Notes under the pieces: model-generated
Seen by the model: the letters and a program-made list of their open reading frames with translations, nothing else
Databases searched by the model: none
What the model was told of the DNA's origin: nothing
Part shown: positions 33,692 to 40,050 of the stretch, piece after piece
Layout of the letters: each line of letters opens with the position of its first letter
Numbering within the stretch: the first letter of the stretch is position 1
Sequence record: MN080711.1
DNA length: 40,050 bases
Reading direction: 5' to 3' (one strand)
DNA from: Escherichia phage vB_Eco_D226
Made by a program: the position numbers and the translations under genes

Positions 33692-36343
33692 TTAGGCAAA
33701 CGCAAAGTCTGACTTAAGGATTTCTTGCAGGTCCAGAGAACCTTTAGCTGGCATCTCAGGCATCTGGTCAAGCTGCGATTCGTGTAACTGGTCAGCAAAT
33801 TGCTCATAGAAGTCTGCGAGTACATCGTTTTCTTCATAGGTGTTCACCATCGTTTCACGCACTGCTTTAAACAGGTTGCCAGCATCAGCAGGGATAGTAC
33901 CAAAGGAGTCGTGAATCAGTGCGAACGATTCCACACCGTAGACCTCATTGGAGCGGACCACAGTCATGCGCAGGTGGCTTCCATCCATTGAGTGAACAAA
34001 GTTAGGTGCGATACCTGACTCCTGCTTACGTGCATCAATGCCGCTATCCTTGTTGGTGTTCACGGTAGGCTGTAGACGAATCTGGCCTAAGAACATCAGG
34101 TTCAAGCGGGTCTGTACTGGCTTCTTGTATTCCTGCCAGACCGGGAAGCCATCAGGAGTAACCCAATGTACCGCACAGCGCTTACGGAGAACCTCTTTGG
34201 TCTTCTTGTCCTTGACTTCAGCAGCCAGAAGTTTAGCGGCAGACTTCAACCAGTTCATCGCTTCAACCGCTGCGACAACTGTGACCGTTACAGCGTTCCA
34301 AATCAGTTTAGCCATGTAGCCAGCCGCTTGGTTCGGTTGAGTGAACATCAAGCCCTTGCCATCGTCGATAGCTGGCTGAATGATGTCCTCAAGAACTTGG
34401 TCGCGGAAGCCATACTCTTTGGAGCCGTAAGCCAACGTCATGACCGAACGCTTAGTGACCTTGCGAGTCACACCGTAGGCCAGCCACTGACCAGCTAACT
34501 CTTTCGTTCCCAGCTTGAGCTTCTCAGTGATTTCACCAGTGTCCTTGTTTGTCACGGTTTCCACTTCGTTATCAGTGCCATTGATTACCGCTTCGCGGAG
34601 CATCTCGTTCACACGTTCGGCAACGATGCGATAGATGTCTTGTACTTCCTTGCTTGGCAGCAGGTTAACCGCACGCCCACCGACTTCATCGCGGAGCATT
34701 GCAGAGAAGTGCTGAATACCAGAGCAAGAGCCATCGAACGCCAGCGGCAGAGAGCAGTTGTAGTGCATACCGTGGTGTTGCACACCTGCATACTCAAAGC
34801 AGAATGCTAGGAAGCAGAACGGAGAATCTTGTTCAGCCCACCAAGTGTTAGCAATCGGGTCAGCAGCAACGCTCATGATGTTCTCGTGGTTGTCATCAAT
34901 GAACTTGATGCGTTCTGCAAAGTCCACCTTGTCCACGCCAGCAGTGTTAGCACCGTGAATCTTCAGCCAGTAGTACCCATCGACACCAATCGGTTTACCC
35001 TTAGCCAAGGTCAGCAGCCCTTTGGTCATGTCGTTGCCTTGCGGGTTAAACATTGGGACTGCATACACACGACCGCGCCAGTCCATGTTCATTGGGAACC
35101 AGATAGCTTTGAACTGTGCGAACTTATTGGCCTGACCTAACATGAACTCCATGCTCATGCGGCGTGACACTCGTGCCTTCTCTTTGCGATAGATTGCGGA
35201 GGCCGCTTTCTTCCACGCTTTCAGAGCCGCTTCGTTCGTGTCGATGTCTTCAGGTTTGACCGGGAGTTCCCCACGTTCGAGAGCAGGTACATCGTCAACC
35301 GGGCAATGCTTCCAGTTCACAATCTCGTTGACCACTGCCAGAACCTTCTTGTTAATCTTCCAAGGTGTATTCTGTGCTATGTTCACCGCCTTGTAAACTT
35401 CAGGCATGTGCACGTCGTTGTAACGCTCTAATCCCTTCTTGCTACCAGTGCGAACCAGAGAGAGAGGCTTGCGTCCAGCAGCCCAATAGCCACCACCTAC
35501 CGGAGAAGTCCAAGGCTTCGGAGGGACTACACAAGGTTGGTACATCGGAGCGATTGCAGCCAGTGCACCAGCACGTTTAGACAGCAGGTCTACATATTGT
35601 TCTGTTAACTGGATGTACTCACCATCCTTCTCAACGTTACCAGCAAACGGTCGGTGTAACTCAACGAGACCAGTAGACCCGATGAGCAGTTCCAACATGC
35701 GCACACCAACGTGAATTGATTCTTCAGGTGTCCATGTAGTCCACTTGGTTTGCAGTTGACCAGCGTCTAACATCTTGCCTTCTACAGCTTGCATGAATGC
35801 TTTCTTGTAGACGATACCAACGCGCTTGTTCAGTGCCTCCTGTACGTGGTTCTTAAAGTGCTTCGCTTCTTCGTCACGGATGCGACCAAAACGCAATTCA
35901 TCCTCAATACTGCGACCAATCTTAGTGGCGACCGATTGCAGGTTGGTGAACTCTTCTTTCGTCAAGCAAGCGAGTGTGACCTTCAGTGTGATGAAAGCAG
36001 CCGCTTCAGGTGCAACCTTCTGTACCAGATTGTAGGCTACTGGACGCTTGCCACGCTTCGCTTCCACCTCGGTGAACCAAGCGTTCCACGCCTCGATAAA
36101 CTTCGGTGCGAGAGATGACAGGAGCGGTTTAGCCACTGCGTTATCACCGAACTCACCCGCTTTGATTTGACGTTCCATTGCCTTAAGAAAACGCTTCTCA
36201 CCCTCAGTGTGCGCTTCGTGCTCAAGCTGTAACTGCGTAGCTGCAAGCTGTGCACCGTAATGGTCAGCCAGAATGTTGTATGGCATGATTGCGTTAGCGA
36301 TGTCAGAGAAGTCGTTCTTTGGTGCGTTGATTACGTTAGTCAT
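33692..36343 (-). CDS. 1: DNA-directed RNA polymerase, single-subunit (gene 1)
   Basis: 883 aa, same length as T7 RNAP; catalytic and finger motifs conserved (NMDWRGRVYAV, FCFLAFCFEY, PLAFDGSCSGIQHFSAML, RSVTKRSVMTLAYGS, FALIHDSFGT); specificity loop QPTVNTNKDSGIDARKQ keeps the T7-type Asn. Confidence 0.98.
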   Translation of the reverse strand: MTNVINAPKNDFSDIANAIMPYNILADHYGAQLAATQLQLEHEAHTEGEKRFLKAMERQIKAGEFGDNAVAKPLLSSLAPKFIEAWNAWFTEVEAKRGKRPVAYNLVQKVAPEAAAFITLKVTLACLTKEEFTNLQSVATKIGRSIEDELRFGRIRDEEAKHFKNHVQEALNKRVGIVYKKAFMQAVEGKMLDAGQLQTKWTTWTPEESIHVGVRMLELLIGSTGLVELHRPFAGNVEKDGEYIQLTEQYVDLLSKRAGALAAIAPMYQPCVVPPKPWTSPVGGGYWAAGRKPLSLVRTGSKKGLERYNDVHMPEVYKAVNIAQNTPWKINKKVLAVVNEIVNWKHCPVDDVPALERGELPVKPEDIDTNEAALKAWKKAASAIYRKEKARVSRRMSMEFMLGQANKFAQFKAIWFPMNMDWRGRVYAVPMFNPQGNDMTKGLLTLAKGKPIGVDGYYWLKIHGANTAGVDKVDFAERIKFIDDNHENIMSVAADPIANTWWAEQDSPFCFLAFCFEYAGVQHHGMHYNCSLPLAFDGSCSGIQHFSAMLRDEVGGRAVNLLPSKEVQDIYRIVAERVNEMLREAVINGTDNEVETVTNKDTGEITEKLKLGTKELAGQWLAYGVTRKVTKRSVMTLAYGSKEYGFRDQVLEDIIQPAIDDGKGLMFTQPNQAAGYMAKLIWNAVTVTVVAAVEAMNWLKSAAKLLAAEVKDKKTKEVLRKRCAVHWVTPDGFPVWQEYKKPVQTRLNLMFLGQIRLQPTVNTNKDSGIDARKQESGIAPNFVHSMDGSHLRMTVVRSNEVYGVESFALIHDSFGTIPADAGNLFKAVRETMVNTYEENDVLADFYEQFADQLHESQLDQMPEMPAKGSLDLQEILKSDFAFA

Positions 36344-36364
36344 TGTTGCCTCACGTTGTTAAGA

Positions 36365-36405
36365 AAGTTTATCTATGAAGGCCAGCAGTCAGTGCCGACC
36401 TTGAA
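36365..36405 (-). promoter_or_regulatory. RNase III-like processing hairpin (R1 position)
   Basis: Inverted repeat gaaggccagcag...gccgaccttg between 0.7 and gene 1. Confidence 0.4.
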
Positions 36406-36416
36406 GATACACCTTA

Positions 36417-37523
36417 TCAGCCTTGCAGTTGTGCGTCAAGTAACTTGTCGATTGGAAGTGAGCGGCATTGCATAAGAGCCATGCGTTCTGCCTGTTTCCA
36501 CTCAAATGCTTTCACCTTGTCAATCATGATTACGTCTGCATTGTTGTTGTGTAACCACATGTTGTGCCAGTTGTGCGCACCCATCCAATCTTGCGCCCTC
36601 ATAGCGTCCCTTAGTTCCTGCTTTTGTTCACGTCTACGCTGTACAAAGTGCTGTGCAACCTCGGCACCACGTTTGGCACGCAGCTTACGATTGCGCTTGC
36701 GGCGTTTCATTGCGGCCTTGCGGTTAACCTGAAAGGTTCCGTTATGGTCACGCTTGGCCTTGCGGTTGCGACAACGTTCAATGATGCGCTCGTTAGCTAT
36801 CGCCTCGACCTCGGCAATCAGTGCTTCAGGGTCCAGAGGGAAACCATCCTCACGTTCACGGTCATGTGAGAAACTAACCGGGTCAGTGATGTACGGAACA
36901 TTGTTATCGTCGAACATAATGTTCCCGCTGTGCATGTCGAAAGATGCAATGCCTTGGAAGAACTCGCGAATCATCTTGCAAGTCTCGATGAACTCCATGC
37001 TAACATGTTGTGCATACCAATCGGCATCACCTCCAGTGCACTCAATGAACTCCTGCGCAGCACTTGCATATTTTGCATGAGTGCCGTTAGCGTATCGGTC
37101 GCAACTGTTCAAATGGTCCAATACAACCGTGTAGCAACCTGCGTGACGTGCTACGTGATAGACGTTAGGGATACCCGCTCGGCCTTGGTGCATCCTACAG
37201 AACGCAGTGTACGCAGCGCCTGAATCCTCTTTCTTAAAGCCAACCTTGATGACTCGACCCGGTAACATTTCGTGCGAGTAGGCCGCGCTGAAGTGACCAT
37301 TACCCAACATGCGGAATCCTGCATCAAGCATGAGGCCTCGCAAGGTGTGCCACCAGTCCTGATATTCAAGACCCTGTGAGCCGTCTGTGTCGTTACCATC
37401 ACATGTTTCACCGTTCACGATGTCAGCAGCTAGTTCGACCAAAAGAGGCTGGCGCTTGTCCAGTTCGCTAATCGGGAGAGACTTGATGATTGCCAGACGT
37501 GCCTGAATGTCGGTGTAGTTCAT
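36417..37523 (-). CDS. 0.7: Ser/Thr protein kinase and host shut-off protein (gp0.7)
   Basis: 368 aa; GFKMLGNGHFSAAYSH, RVIKVGFKKEDSGAAYTAFCRM, GIPNVY, GIASFDMHSGNIMF...VPYITDPVSFS match T7 gp0.7. Confidence 0.95.
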   Translation of the reverse strand: MNYTDIQARLAIIKSLPISELDKRQPLLVELAADIVNGETCDGNDTDGSQGLEYQDWWHTLRGLMLDAGFRMLGNGHFSAAYSHEMLPGRVIKVGFKKEDSGAAYTAFCRMHQGRAGIPNVYHVARHAGCYTVVLDHLNSCDRYANGTHAKYASAAQEFIECTGGDADWYAQHVSMEFIETCKMIREFFQGIASFDMHSGNIMFDDNNVPYITDPVSFSHDREREDGFPLDPEALIAEVEAIANERIIERCRNRKAKRDHNGTFQVNRKAAMKRRKRNRKLRAKRGAEVAQHFVQRRREQKQELRDAMRAQDWMGAHNWHNMWLHNNNADVIMIDKVKAFEWKQAERMALMQCRSLPIDKLLDAQLQG

Positions 37524-37544
37524 TAGATTGTGTCCTGTTTAAGT

Positions 37545-37763
37545 TTAAGAAAGAGCGTTCAATGTATTGGTTAATGCTTGTTCGAGTGCTGCGAGCTTCT
37601 GTGCTTTGACCTTGGCCTTTCGTCTATGCCATGCAGCCCGCTCCTGTTCCTTGCGTCGTTCGAGGTTGTTCTCGCGCCAAGTTCTCACTATGCGCCTATT
37701 TGCAGCATGAAGCGTGCCATTCTGCATATAACCTTTCTTCAGGTCATCAGTGCGTTGCAACAT
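37545..37763 (-). CDS. Small basic hypothetical early protein (72 aa)
   Basis: Arg/Lys-rich ORF (..RRIVRTWRENNLERRKEQERAAWHRRKAKVKAQK..) between the small membrane ORF and gene 0.7; corresponds to the T7 0.4-0.6 region. Confidence 0.5.
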   Translation of the reverse strand: MLQRTDDLKKGYMQNGTLHAANRRIVRTWRENNLERRKEQERAAWHRRKAKVKAQKLAALEQALTNTLNALS

Positions 37764-37944
37764 AGAAGATTCCTACCTTGTTCGCCTTAAAGCGCCCGTT
37801 ACGTTCACGTACAGTAAACCGTGGTATGAAGCCATACTTCAGGTGCGAGAAGTTAGCTTTGTGTACCTTCAGACCCTTTGTGAAGTCCTTCAGGAAGTAC
37901 AGCGCGATTAGAGTGTAAACGAGTGAGACAAATACATATAACAT
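37747..37944 (-). CDS. Small membrane protein (65 aa), early region
   Basis: N-terminal hydrophobic helix MLYVFVSLVYTLIALYFL; GAGGT 8 nt upstream of ATG. Confidence 0.5.
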   Translation of the reverse strand: MLYVFVSLVYTLIALYFLKDFTKGLKVHKANFSHLKYGFIPRFTVRERNGRFKANKVGIFYVATH

Positions 37945-37977
37945 GTGGTGTTACCTCATAGAGTGCAAATCGCGCCA

Positions 37978-38178
37978 TCAGTCATTCCAGCCTGCACATG
38001 TTGCTTGGTGTATCACGCAGGCTTGGTATTCTTCCTGCGCCAAAACCTCGTTCACCCAATGCGTGACTTGTTTACCGTATCGTACAACGTAGGTTCTTCC
38101 CATTGCCCCGTGATCATACTCTCGCAGTGTTACAGTGCATTGACCTTTGATTTTAGATGTTGCCAGAAGTTTACTCAT
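37978..38178 (-). CDS. Small hypothetical early protein (66 aa)
   Basis: Start MSKLLATSKIKGQ with AGGA upstream; first ORF after the SAM lyase gene. Confidence 0.5.
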   Translation of the reverse strand: MSKLLATSKIKGQCTVTLREYDHGAMGRTYVVRYGKQVTHWVNEVLAQEEYQACVIHQATCAGWND

Positions 38179-38204
38179 GGTGTTAGTCCTATTGCATGTT
38201 AAAG

Positions 38205-38250
38205 TGATAATCATGAAAGGCCACTCATATTGAGCGACCTTGAGTTTATC
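38205..38250 (-). promoter_or_regulatory. RNase III-like processing hairpin (R0.5 position)
   Basis: Transcript aaggucgcuca/ugaguggccuu, an 11-bp stem with G.U pairs; conserved flanks gtgataatcat...ccttgagtttatcac. Confidence 0.45.
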
Positions 38251-38252
38251 AC

Positions 38253-38711
38253 TTACTGTACTTGCCAGCGGCGACCGAACTCATCAATGGTGAAGCAGCC
38301 TTTCAGTGCCTCGGTGCGTGGGACTTCTTGGAAGCTACCGTGCAGACGTTCAGCTTTATAACCATCAATGCCTTTAGCGTACACTAAGCCAGCCGTGTGA
38401 GTCTGTGACTTATAGACCAGTACACAATCTTGCTCGAACTCATTACACGCCAGACGTGCGACCGCTATTGCTTGAGCTTTGTTAGCACAGCGTACACGAA
38501 CAGTCAGTTCCTCAGTTGGTGCACTTGCGATAGCCTCCCGATAACAACCAGTCAAATCTGTAGACTCAACGCTACCGTATTCAAGCGGTGCATTACGCAG
38601 TGAGTTAACCATGTGACGATGACGACTCATATTGACTTCATCGCAGAGGTTAGAGCGGAACGCTGATACCAGTACATAGAATACGTTTGCAGGTTCGTTA
38701 GTGTAAATCAT
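38253..38711 (-). CDS. 0.3: S-adenosyl-L-methionine lyase (T3-type SAMase, anti-restriction), gene 0.3
   Basis: 152 aa; EPANVFYVLVSAFRSNLCDEVNMSRHRHMV...SVESTDLTGCYREAI...CVLVYKSQTHTAGLVYAKGIDGYKAERL.GSFQEVP...GCFTIDEFGRRWQVQ matches T3 gp0.3 as recalled, not T7 Ocr. Confidence 0.9.
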   Translation of the reverse strand: MIYTNEPANVFYVLVSAFRSNLCDEVNMSRHRHMVNSLRNAPLEYGSVESTDLTGCYREAIASAPTEELTVRVRCANKAQAIAVARLACNEFEQDCVLVYKSQTHTAGLVYAKGIDGYKAERLHGSFQEVPRTEALKGCFTIDEFGRRWQVQ

Positions 38712-38724
38712 GATAGTGCCTCAT

Positions 38725-38790
38725 TATGTGTTAGTGATTATCATTAAAGAGCACACGTTGTTACTTAATGTATGCCCTTGAGTTAATCGC
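38725..38790 (-). promoter_or_regulatory. RNase III-like hairpin candidate upstream of gene 0.3 (R0.3 position)
   Basis: Shares flanks gtgattatcat...ccttgagttaatc with the hairpin family; the stem is less regular. Confidence 0.3.
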
Positions 38791-38959
38791 TATCGGCGTT
38801 ATCACTGTTTAAACGCTTGTGCGTTCACGTCATCCCGTAGTTCTTGACTACCTGTCTCGCAGTAGGGAATTACACGACCATATTGTTAAAGAACTTTAAG
38901 TGCAGGTTTCGTTAGCACCGAGTCACTTTCAGTGTGTGACCTCACAAGAACGTTATATA

Positions 38960-39001
38960 GTGCATGTGGTACAGCTTACAGTTTTTAAAGGAGACTGTCA
39001 A
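38960..39001 (-). promoter_or_regulatory. Host sigma70-type early promoter (A3-like)
   Basis: Reverse strand TTGACA, 17-nt spacer, TAAGCT, then GTACCACATG; T7 A3 carries a similar GTACCACATG context. Confidence 0.45.
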
Positions 39002-39109
39002 CCTGTTATTCTTTTATGCGATGAGTGACCGAATTCGACTCACGGCTAGTGCCTTATCCGTTGGCGGGTCACGGGCAGGTTTCTCGGTTCCTATCCCTAC
39101 ACCCTTACT

Positions 39110-39150
39110 GCATGTCGTACATCTTACATCTTATCGTTACTGCTTGTCAA
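39110..39150 (-). promoter_or_regulatory. Host sigma70-type early promoter (A2-like)
   Basis: Reverse strand TTGACA, 18-nt spacer, TAAGAT. Confidence 0.5.
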
Positions 39151-39204
39151 CTACTTTTGTTTCTCACCGTGACACCTCATGTTGTTTCAGAGGGCGACCA
39201 GTTG

Positions 39205-39245
39205 TTGACGACTGCTATACTACGTTATTGCTTTCGTTGAGTCAA
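39205..39245 (-). promoter_or_regulatory. Host sigma70-type early promoter (A1-like)
   Basis: Reverse strand TTGACT, 17-nt spacer, TAGTAT. Confidence 0.4.
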
Positions 39246-39457
39246 CCACTTTCGTATGTCTGGTTGATGACTACTTGAGACACTTCAGCTTTACTAGATA
39301 ACTCGCGGTCTTGTCTAGTAGTTGGTAGCGTTGTGTCTCTCAACGGTCGCTATAGTCTCATAGCTGTTTCTTAGAGTCAATACTTAAAGTAACAAATAAT
39401 CGTCTTTAAGTGTCTTTAAGTTATCCCTATAAGGAATGGGAATAGTAATAGACACTC

Positions 39458-39480
39458 ATCCTCAATAGTGAGTCATATTA
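39458..39480 (-). promoter_or_regulatory. Phage RNAP promoter phiOL
   Basis: Reverse strand TAATATGACTCACTATTGAGGAT near the left end. Confidence 0.65.
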
Positions 39481-39483
39481 ACT

Positions 39484-39935
39484 ATATGGTCTTTTAGTGA
39501 GGCTTTAAGGCTGGTCTAAGAGTGGCAACGATAGGTCTATGGACTGAAGGCACTGACTGAAGGTTAACATAAGGATAACCAGCCATAAGGATAGACATAA
39601 GGTGATAACTCTAAGAGGTCATAAGGTGATAACTCAAAGGTCACTTACAGATAGGGACACAGAGAGGACTACATATAGTGGTCATAAGGTATCACTAAGC
39701 ACCATATCTAGTGGTAACACCTAGAGTTAACCCAATGTCTCACAAAAGGATTGACTTCAGGTAAACCATGAGTTACCATAGAGGAAGGCTCTTTGGGTGG
39801 ACTGAAGGAGGCCATAGGGGGGAACTCGGTGTTTATGAACTATGAGATACCCACTCAGATTTTTCTGTAGGATTCTTAAAGGGGTACATCAAGTATCTCA
39901 TAAGGTTATCCTTGGAGTGGCTATCATAAGGTTAG
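39484..39935. repeat. Left-end short-repeat array between the terminal repeat and phiOL
   Basis: At least eight CATAAGG(T/A) heptamers (plus strand) with longer copies such as ggtcataaggtgataactc occurring twice; non-coding. Confidence 0.6.
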
Positions 39936-40050
39936 ACTACGTGAGAGACCCTAAGAGACCCTGTAGACCATAGAGGGTACATAAGGGTTTACTCTTAGAG
40001 TTGACTTCTTACAGTGATAATAGGGAAGATGTATATCGACCATTATCACT
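39936..40050. repeat. Direct terminal repeat, copy at phage left end (identical to 1-115)
   Basis: Exact 115-bp identity with window positions 1-115. Confidence 0.9.

Follow-up and report, generated by a model that had tools for sequence, protein, structure and literature searches.

The early region of Escherichia phage vB_Eco_D226 (sequence record MN080711.1) raises the question of what is encoded by three small open reading frames (ORFs) that lie on the minus strand between the gene of the S-adenosylmethionine (SAM) lyase and the gene of the 0.7 protein kinase. The window, i.e., the whole stretch of DNA that was analysed, is 40,050 nucleotides (nt) long, and the three ORFs, hereinafter referred to as orfA, orfB and orfC, are located within positions 37,545–38,178. 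A first-pass annotation had described them as a cluster of ORFs of 66, 65 and 72 amino acids (aa) and had proposed uncharacterised host-interference functions for them. The analysis presented here indicates that they are genuine genes and, on balance, probably separately translated class I accessory genes, namely 0.45, T3-type 0.6 and 0.6B/0.62, and that their products are probably dispensable host-interference proteins.

The coordinates, lengths and flanking genes of the first-pass annotation were found to be exact. The orfA gene (minus strand, gene position 37,978–38,178, 66 aa) encodes a homolog of gp0.45 of the phage phiYeO3-12 and matched the full profile of PHROG 6500 (phrog_6500, E-value 5.4e-44); the identity was 85% to phiYeO3-12 gp0.45 and 85–89% to gp0.45 of phiYeO3-12 and phiSG-JL2. 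The orfB gene (minus strand, 37,747–37,944, 65 aa) was attributed to PHROG 2385 (phrog_2385, E-value 5.7e-27), and its product is 69–82% identical to T3 gp0.6, phiYeO3-12 gp0.6A and Kvp1 0.6. The orfC gene (minus strand, 37,545–37,763, 72 aa) was attributed to PHROG 8393 (phrog_8393, E-value 9.4e-15). Its product is the ortholog of Kvp1 0.62 (97% identity) and of the stand-alone 0.6B protein of re-sequenced T7 (T7 positions 1781–1999; 87.5% identity over residues 1–72, GU071091 and about 30 other T7 records). As judged by these similarities, all three proteins belong to named, widespread families of the T7 group, namely 0.45, T3-type 0.6 and T7-type 0.6B/0.62.

The common features of each ORF and its family include both the protein and its position. 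Like orfA, the gp0.45 proteins of phiYeO3-12 and phiSG-JL2 consist of 66 aa, start with MSKLL and are encoded downstream of the R0.45 RNase III hairpin; as in this family, orfA is preceded by an RNase III site and followed by the 0.5/0.6 position. No substantive difference was found, although in other phages the gene follows Ocr and 0.4 and not a SAM lyase. The T3 gp0.6 family shares with orfB the length of 65 aa, an N-terminal transmembrane helix, the invariant segment NGRFKANKVG and the slot in the genome, but the next ORF is of the T7-type 0.62 in vB_Eco_D226 and 0.65 in T3. A transmembrane domain was also predicted in gene 0.6 of the phage AP5 (PMC4283147). The re-sequenced T7 0.6B and Kvp1 0.62 have the length of orfC (72 aa), the same overlap geometry with the upstream gene and the same ribosome-binding site, while the upstream partner is 0.6A in T7 and T3-type 0.6 in vB_Eco_D226. 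T7 gp0.4 (an FtsZ inhibitor), T7 gp0.5 and T3 gp0.65 are likewise small class I early proteins encoded in this accessory region; T3 0.65 occupies the same position as 0.62 but is not homologous to it.

Each ORF was found to have its own ribosome-binding site, as had been claimed, with a Shine–Dalgarno match on the minus strand 7–8 nt upstream of the ATG. The duplex energies were computed against the 3' end of 16S rRNA. The match of orfA is AGGA (38,187–38,190; 8 nt before the ATG; −3.9 kcal/mol) and that of orfB is GAGGT (37,953–37,957; 8 nt; −6.9 kcal/mol). The match of orfC, AAGGTAGGA (37,771–37,779; 7 nt), is located within the 3' end of orfB and is the strongest of the seven starts tested (−7.6 kcal/mol). 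The corresponding values for the flanking genes are −5.6 kcal/mol for the SAM lyase and −4.0 kcal/mol for 0.7. The orfA frame could also be read from its first ATG at 38,214 (37,978–38,214, 78 aa), but this ATG lies inside a hairpin and has a weak Shine–Dalgarno match, and every orfA homolog starts with MSKLL, which corresponds to the ATG at 38,178 and a protein of 66 aa. Several database entries of the orfA family, 80–93 aa long, appear to take extended upstream starts. All three ORFs are already annotated in vB_Eco_D226 and are not new; the orfB and orfC products show 100% identity to database proteins of this phage. The product of orfC, a basic protein of 72 aa, is named "DNA-directed RNA polymerase" for this phage in GenBank/UniRef, which is an evident mis-annotation that was probably carried over from a neighbouring gene.

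The plus strand of the region contains many spurious ORFs of similar length. Since short ORFs are common here by chance, selection was tested using full-length ungapped homologs from 98 fetched loci (unique nucleotide sequences: n = 16 for orfA, n = 54 for orfB and n = 5 for orfC). The median pairwise ratio of nonsynonymous to synonymous substitution rates (dN/dS) was 0.10 for orfA, 0.115 for orfB and 0.105 for orfC, and the same computation gave 0.084 for the SAM lyase. When these alignments were read in the +1 and +2 frames as an off-frame control, the ratio of nonsynonymous to synonymous differences (pN/pS) was 1.3–2.1. The synonymous divergence among the homologs is large (pS of about 0.46–0.49), so the conservation reflects constraint and not recent common descent. 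Thus, orfA, orfB and orfC are protein-coding genes under purifying selection about as strong as that on the SAM lyase. A tblastn search matched 157 phage records for orfA, 670 for orfB and 61 for orfC.

No match to the three proteins was found in Pfam, NCBIfam or PADLOC, the RepA_IncFII hit of orfC (E-value 0.02) falling short of the cut-off. PDB sequence searches that used either single sequences or profiles returned no significant match for the three proteins; the top match of orfC was a designed helical protein (E-value 0.0058). No relationship was found between orfC and T3 0.65 (E-value 9.1) or between orfC and the basic shut-off domain of the adjoining 0.7 kinase (E-value 17). In a tblastn search, T7 0.4 and 0.5 were matched in other loci and had no match in the window, and T7 0.6A and T3 0.65 likewise had none there. 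The statement of the first-pass annotation that the ORFs are not T7 0.4, 0.5 or 0.6 thus stands for 0.4, 0.5 and the core of 0.6A (tblastn; hhalign probability of 1.8% for 0.6A), but not for 0.6B, to which orfC is 87.5% identical. Clear homology to a T7 protein of the 0.4–0.6 group does exist for orfC and 0.6B, but not to one of established function.

The arrangement of these families in related phages was evaluated by scoring ten query proteins against 83 non-redundant early regions. The T7-type 0.6A was present in 13 and the T3-type 0.6 in 70 of the 83 regions, with no region having both or neither, but the loci were retrieved with orfA, orfB or orfC queries, mostly orfB, and the absolute frequencies are biased in favour of genomes with these genes. 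In the 21 loci fetched with orfA or orfC, which are unbiased for the 0.6 slot, there was likewise exactly one type of 0.6 each. The ORF of the 0.62 (orfC) type was found in 11 regions and T3 0.65 in 21; both were never present together, and 51 regions had neither. The 0.45 gene was accompanied by a SAM lyase in 11 regions, and in the seven others Ocr was present instead. In the early region of Escherichia phage P694, the SAM lyase and Ocr with 0.4 are both present, followed by 0.45 and T3-type 0.6; therefore, the SAM lyase and Ocr+0.4 cassettes are not strictly alternative. The small membrane protein T7 0.5 occurred alongside T7 0.6A in 9 of 13 regions and alongside T3-type 0.6 in 1 of 70. Across the census, which includes Pectobacterium phage PP74, T7 0.5 thus travels with the soluble 0.6A and hardly ever with the T3-type 0.6, which has a transmembrane helix of its own.

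In the flanks, the phage vB_SEqdws-315 and the window are 99% identical, but a T7-type 0.6A replaces orfA and orfB in this phage. The trio of 0.45, T3-type 0.6 and 0.62 was found only in vB_Eco_D226 and pO103, and the only other genomes found with T3-type 0.6 followed by 0.62 were pO103 and Kvp1, the latter without 0.45. The 0.7 kinase of vB_Eco_D226 is 96% identical to that of vB_SEqdws-315, about 72–80% to those of pO103 and Kvp1 and about 50–53% to those of T7 and T3. Since orfC is 87.5% and the adjoining 0.7 only about 53% identical to the T7 counterpart, these neighbouring genes have had very different histories or constraints. The region is a recombining mosaic of cassettes in which alternative small genes occupy fixed slots.

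One of the ORFs had been described as a single-helix membrane peptide. This holds for orfB, in which residues 2–18 form one hydrophobic helix (Kyte–Doolittle value of 2.24), but with the refinement that the helix is followed by a highly conserved basic beta-domain of 45 residues. The AlphaFold2 model, based on a 32-sequence alignment (predicted local distance difference test (pLDDT) score of 71), contained a helix at residues 2–22 and four beta-strands. Residues 19–65 include 11 lysines and arginines versus two aspartates and glutamates, and according to the positive-inside rule the beta-domain should be cytoplasmic. Across the family, Y10 and I13 never change although the rest of the helix is variable, and the segment N49–G58 (NGRFKANKVG) of the domain is invariant as well, which suggests specific contacts in the membrane and at its inner face. 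Our best guess is that orfB is a membrane-tethered binder of a host machine associated with the inner membrane. The elongasome would be the leading candidate for the target, because orfB shares its slot with T7 0.5+0.6A; superinfection exclusion or action on a membrane-bound defence system are the alternatives.

A more specific proposal is that orfB could be a functional analog of T7 Gp0.6, i.e., a membrane-tethered inhibitor of MreB or the elongasome that would round the cell early in infection. According to several sources (PMC5624674, PMC6965359 and bioRxiv 10.64898/2026.09.14.751387, citing Molshanski-Mor 2014), the T7 "Gp0.6", that is, the product of 0.6A or 0.6B, was reported to bind and inhibit MreB. 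The orfB gene stands precisely where T7 has 0.6A, and no region was found to contain both; it would likewise be expressed early, and the two proteins share their last 13 residues. Moreover, T7 has the membrane protein 0.5 and the soluble 0.6A, while in the T3-type phages a transmembrane helix and a soluble domain are combined in one protein; this hints that 0.5+0.6A and T3-type 0.6 are a two-gene and a one-gene solution to the same task. MreB works at the cytoplasmic face of the inner membrane, which is the predicted site of the basic domain of orfB, and the bioRxiv report (10.64898/2026.09.14.751387) indicates that both Gp0.6 and another peripheral phage protein, Emp, target MreB/MreBCD.

However, T7 0.6A has no transmembrane helix, and its core is unrelated to orfB. 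The only part that could be aligned was the C-terminal tail of 13 residues (K.NK.G..Y..TH; hhalign probability of 1.8%). At the DNA level, this shared tail is the Shine–Dalgarno element and the start of the downstream ORF, and it is missing in the 0.6A variants of 45 aa. Homology of orfB to the 45-residue core of T7 0.6A was rejected, as tblastn gave no match and the hhalign probability was as low as stated. Since the similarity is confined to the tail, the name "gene 0.6" covers two proteins that have a slot and a junction in common but are not related to each other. In addition, a structure search with orfB gave no informative match, cassettes in one slot need not share a function, and the reported effect on MreB may belong to either T7 0.6 product. 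We therefore regard MreB inhibition by orfB as rather unlikely, and the broader reading of orfB as a membrane-tethered binder is preferred.

The orfA product was modeled with AlphaFold2 (pLDDT 80.7), and the model is that of a soluble protein with four beta-strands and a C-terminal helix. When 1.84 billion representatives were searched exhaustively with a profile, 34 small proteins were obtained. Four positions of their alignment never vary (Y34, G35, A47 and H57), and four more (V16, V32, C54 and C61) are conserved in 90% or more of the members, giving the family motif YG ... A..E(Y/F)..C..H...CAG, the helix part of which is C-x2-H-x3-C-A-G. All 34 members match phrog_6500, and 24 also match phrog_20418. 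The family may be confined to phages, with members of about 65 aa that form at least 34 clusters at 50% identity; it occurs in Autographiviridae of Enterobacteria, Bordetella and Pseudomonas, with a single match in a Vibrio phage of 136 kb. Clusters of small uncharacterised genes also surround its relatives in Bordetella phage BB8 and Pseudomonas phage phiNV3, at a distance from the left end of 1.4 kb and 2.2 kb, respectively, and its relative in the Vibrio phage. A structure search of BFVD with orfA returned only uncharacterised phage relatives, including a similar predicted structure in Escherichia phage PBECO4. Based on the conserved helix, we infer that orfA is a protein-binding effector with the Cys/His helix as its active surface, possibly metal-dependent.

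The model of orfA also includes a three-stranded sheet packed on a helix, as in AP2 domains. This raises the possibility that orfA is a sequence- or structure-specific nucleic-acid binder with the AP2/integrase arm-binding fold, which would redirect host or phage gene expression. The identity to proteins of the AP2, integrase arm-binding and WGR fold is only 11%, however, and orfA is without their conserved DNA-contact basic residues. Membership in the AP2 family by sequence was rejected: Pfam revealed no domain in any of the 34 members, and no basic sheet residue is conserved among them. To our knowledge, AP2 domains lack a conserved Cys/His motif of this kind in their helix. The isoelectric point (pI) of orfA is 7.75, its conserved residues are on the helix, and its simple topology also matches MmoD, YkuJ, secretion chaperones and immunity proteins. 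DNA binding is thus a weaker alternative that ranks below the protein-binding reading, and we consider it improbable. It seems equally doubtful that the orfA family, as AP2-like early proteins with the C-x2-H-x3-C-A-G triad, represents a new type of inhibitor that depends on a metal and is directed against a conserved protein of host defence or housekeeping; in that case, since 0.45 stands next to either Ocr or the SAM lyase, it could be a second, independent layer of counter-defence.

The product of orfC is strongly basic, as the first-pass annotation had noted for one of the ORFs. It has a pI of 11.2, contains 17 lysines and arginines and no glycine or proline after residue 16, and includes two Arg-flanked tryptophans (RTWRE and AAWHRRK) and a Leu-rich amphipathic tail at residues 55–72. 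The mean column identity in its family is 92% (28 cluster representatives); the 0.7 kinases encoded next to it in T7 and vB_Eco_D226 are only about 53% identical. With a presumed basic helix and a short zipper-like segment after it, orfC is laid out much like nucleic-acid binders of the basic-region or arginine-rich type. We tentatively suggest that orfC may bind RNA or DNA as an oligomer.

A separate question is whether orfC is a gene in its own right. It corresponds to a stretch of the T7 reference that is annotated as the frameshifted C-terminal part of a "possible gene 0.6B". In a rival reading, a programmed +1 ribosomal frameshift would join orfB and orfC, so that they are made mainly as a single fusion protein whose C-terminal half is orfC. 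The two ORFs overlap by 17 nt, and orfC is in the +1 frame relative to orfB. Joined 0.6B coding sequences (CDSs) are annotated by GenBank in NC_001604 (T7) and NC_001271 (phiYeO3-12), the pO103 record has a note to the same effect, and PHROG 8393 is a profile of 111 positions built partly from such fusions.

The T7 sequences themselves point in the other direction. In about 30 T7 records, orfC was matched over 72 residues in a single frame (1781–1996), while in the T7 reference of 1983 (V01146/NC_001604) the match was split in two pieces. Direct alignment revealed that the reference is without one A (GGAACAAG vs. GG-ACAAG), namely nt 116 of the ORF starting at T7 genome position 1781 (NC_001604 vs. 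GU071091, loci 1382–1600 and 401–619). With this A restored, T7 encodes a protein of 72 aa with its own ATG, and a stand-alone "0.6B" CDS (1781–1999) is annotated in GU071091. The T7 fusion model thus needs a 1-nt deletion that about 30 other T7 records do not have.

The context of orfC agrees with this. A stop codon closes its frame three codons before the ATG, so only about 26 nt are available for a frameshift, and no obvious slippery motif was noticed by eye in this stretch. ORFs of the orfC type occur downstream of two unrelated genes, T7-type 0.6A or T3-type 0.6; in the phage NC-A, a 0.6A of 45 aa is followed after 12 nt by the orfC homolog, with no overlap. The Shine–Dalgarno element of orfC, the best match of the region, also precedes the T7 0.6B ORF. 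These features argue for independent initiation of orfC, translationally coupled to orfB, and against frameshifting. The definition of 0.6B as a frameshift fusion was thus rejected for orfC, which has its own ATG and Shine–Dalgarno element and an upstream in-frame stop, the T7 reference lacking one A. Synthesis of orfB and orfC mainly as one protein appears very unlikely, although a minor orfB–orfC fusion product may exist besides the stand-alone orfC. In vB_SEqdws-315 (OK663600), the orfC homolog at 1772–1986 is split over two frames (residues 1–31 and 32–72), and its annotation covers a fragment of 44 aa; either the gene is truly frameshifted or a pseudogene in this phage, or the sequence contains an error.

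The short length of the three ORFs, the many spurious ORFs of similar size on the opposite strand and the absence of Pfam and NCBIfam matches could suggest that the three are open by chance, or that they are decaying remnants that do not encode a functional protein. This reading is refuted by the selection analysis (dN/dS of 0.10–0.12 vs. more than 1.3 in the off-frame controls) and is extremely improbable given the ribosome-binding site of each ORF, the hundreds of conserved homologs and the intact starts and stops, the stop position being the same in 16/16 orfA, 5/5 orfC and 51/54 orfB homologs and one codon later in the remaining 3/54.

The phage itself belongs to the genus Berlinvirus (Studiervirinae) and is a T3/Berlin-like coliphage with the early region on the minus strand. 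A perfect direct terminal repeat of 115 nt was found at positions 1–115 and 39,936–40,050; since it is present at both ends of the window, the window represents the whole linear genome in reversed orientation. Short tandem repeats with a 24-nt unit are located near the left end (39,596–39,643). The top full-length DNA match to the region was the phage pO103 (91%). The order of genes on the minus strand is SAM lyase, hairpin, orfA, orfB, orfC, 0.7 kinase and the RNA polymerase gene. The flanking gene 0.3 (minus strand, 38,253–38,711, 152 aa) encodes a SAM lyase (Pfam S-AdoMet_lyase, PF23780, E-value 1.4e-41), and the flanking gene 0.7 (minus strand, 36,417–37,523, 368 aa) encodes a protein kinase with a host shut-off domain (phrog_2828, E-value 5.5e-180). 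The view that this is an early accessory region with anti-restriction and host-takeover genes transcribed by the host RNA polymerase was borne out.

Two sigma-70-like early (A-type) promoters were found upstream of gene 0.3 (minus strand, 39,121–39,245; consensus scores of 10/12 and 9/12). The scan gave six promoter-like sites versus 5.1 expected by chance; as the sites are not above chance, the assignment rests on their position, which corresponds to that of the annotated A promoters of T3 and phiYeO3-12. No terminator-like site was found by the scan on the minus strand between the early promoters and gene 1. An RNase III-type hairpin, homologous to R0.45/R0.5, is located between the SAM lyase gene and orfA (minus strand, 38,202–38,254). 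Its fold energy is −23.6 kcal/mol (z = −3.7), and it is the sole inverted repeat in 37,400–38,800. The region 38,195–38,260 differs very little from the RNase III sites that are annotated as R0.45 in phiYeO3-12 and as R0.5 in T3. An Rfam search of 36,000–40,050 gave no match. Judging from the homology of the hairpin to these sites, a single processed early mRNA would carry the three ORFs and 0.7.

Taken together, the following course of expression can be proposed. The host RNA polymerase would transcribe the three ORFs from the A promoters at the left end, and the transcript would be cut from the 0.3 message at the RNase III hairpin. The resulting processed mRNA would then serve for the synthesis of the orfA, orfB and orfC proteins and of the 0.7 kinase, with orfC being initiated by translational coupling at a strong ribosome-binding site of its own, which lies within the last part of orfB. 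Each protein would bind a host component and is probably a dispensable host-interference protein. The small globular orfA protein, composed of a beta-sheet and a helix, would most likely bind a host protein through the C-x2-H-x3-C-A-G helix, possibly via a metal. The N-terminal helix of the orfB protein would serve as its anchor in the inner membrane, with the basic beta-domain facing the cytoplasm; filling the slot of T7 0.5 and 0.6A, orfB would most likely act on a membrane-associated target of the envelope or elongasome type. For orfC, with a long basic helix, two Arg-flanked tryptophans and a Leu-rich tail, binding of RNA or DNA as an oligomer would be the most likely mode of action.

Several points weigh against this explanation. 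No experiments on 0.45, T3-type 0.6, 0.62/0.6B or 0.65 were found in the searchable literature; the three proteins, which had been called both unrecognised and uncharacterised, all fall into named families of the T7 group, but no experimental function was found for them. The text supplements of the screen of 200 accessory genes by Silas et al. (bioRxiv 10.1101/2023.04.06.535777) contained no peptide match to the three proteins. The targeting of MreB cannot be transferred to orfB by homology, because the cores of orfB and T7 0.6A are unrelated. The orfA protein is nearly neutral and has no conserved basic sheet residue, so its AP2-like fold may not mean DNA binding, and C54, H57 and C61 could be ordinary helix-packing residues and not metal ligands. 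The helical, basic-region-plus-zipper reading of orfC is drawn from its sequence alone, and the retrieval bias of the census also has to be counted here.

The genes on both sides of the three ORFs are established factors of counter-defence or host takeover. The SAM lyase and Ocr counter restriction and BREX. The 0.7 kinase counters Dnd, CRISPR and other systems, and JSS1_004 of Salmonella phage JSS1, a 0.7 homolog, is an anti-defence kinase (PMC12345140, PMC11680406). The same phage also has an orfC homolog, JSS1_003. The left-end early region of the T7 group is a repeated source of inhibitors with precise host targets (Ocr, SAM lyase, Gp0.4 for FtsZ, Gp0.6 for MreB, and the 0.7 kinase), and three constrained, widespread families that are shuffled as cassettes carry the signature of arms-race genes.

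The correct gene boundaries and names are now set for vB_Eco_D226. The 0.6B/0.62 gene is to be treated as a stand-alone gene and not as a frameshift product, and since "gene 0.6" denotes one protein in T3-type phages and a different one in T7-type phages, the shared name is no reason to transfer the function in relation to MreB. The outcome is in line with what specialists would expect; it supplies a specific, testable target class for each protein. The three genes are well-delimited candidates for the discovery of host targets, with the orfA family being the widest and the least understood of them.

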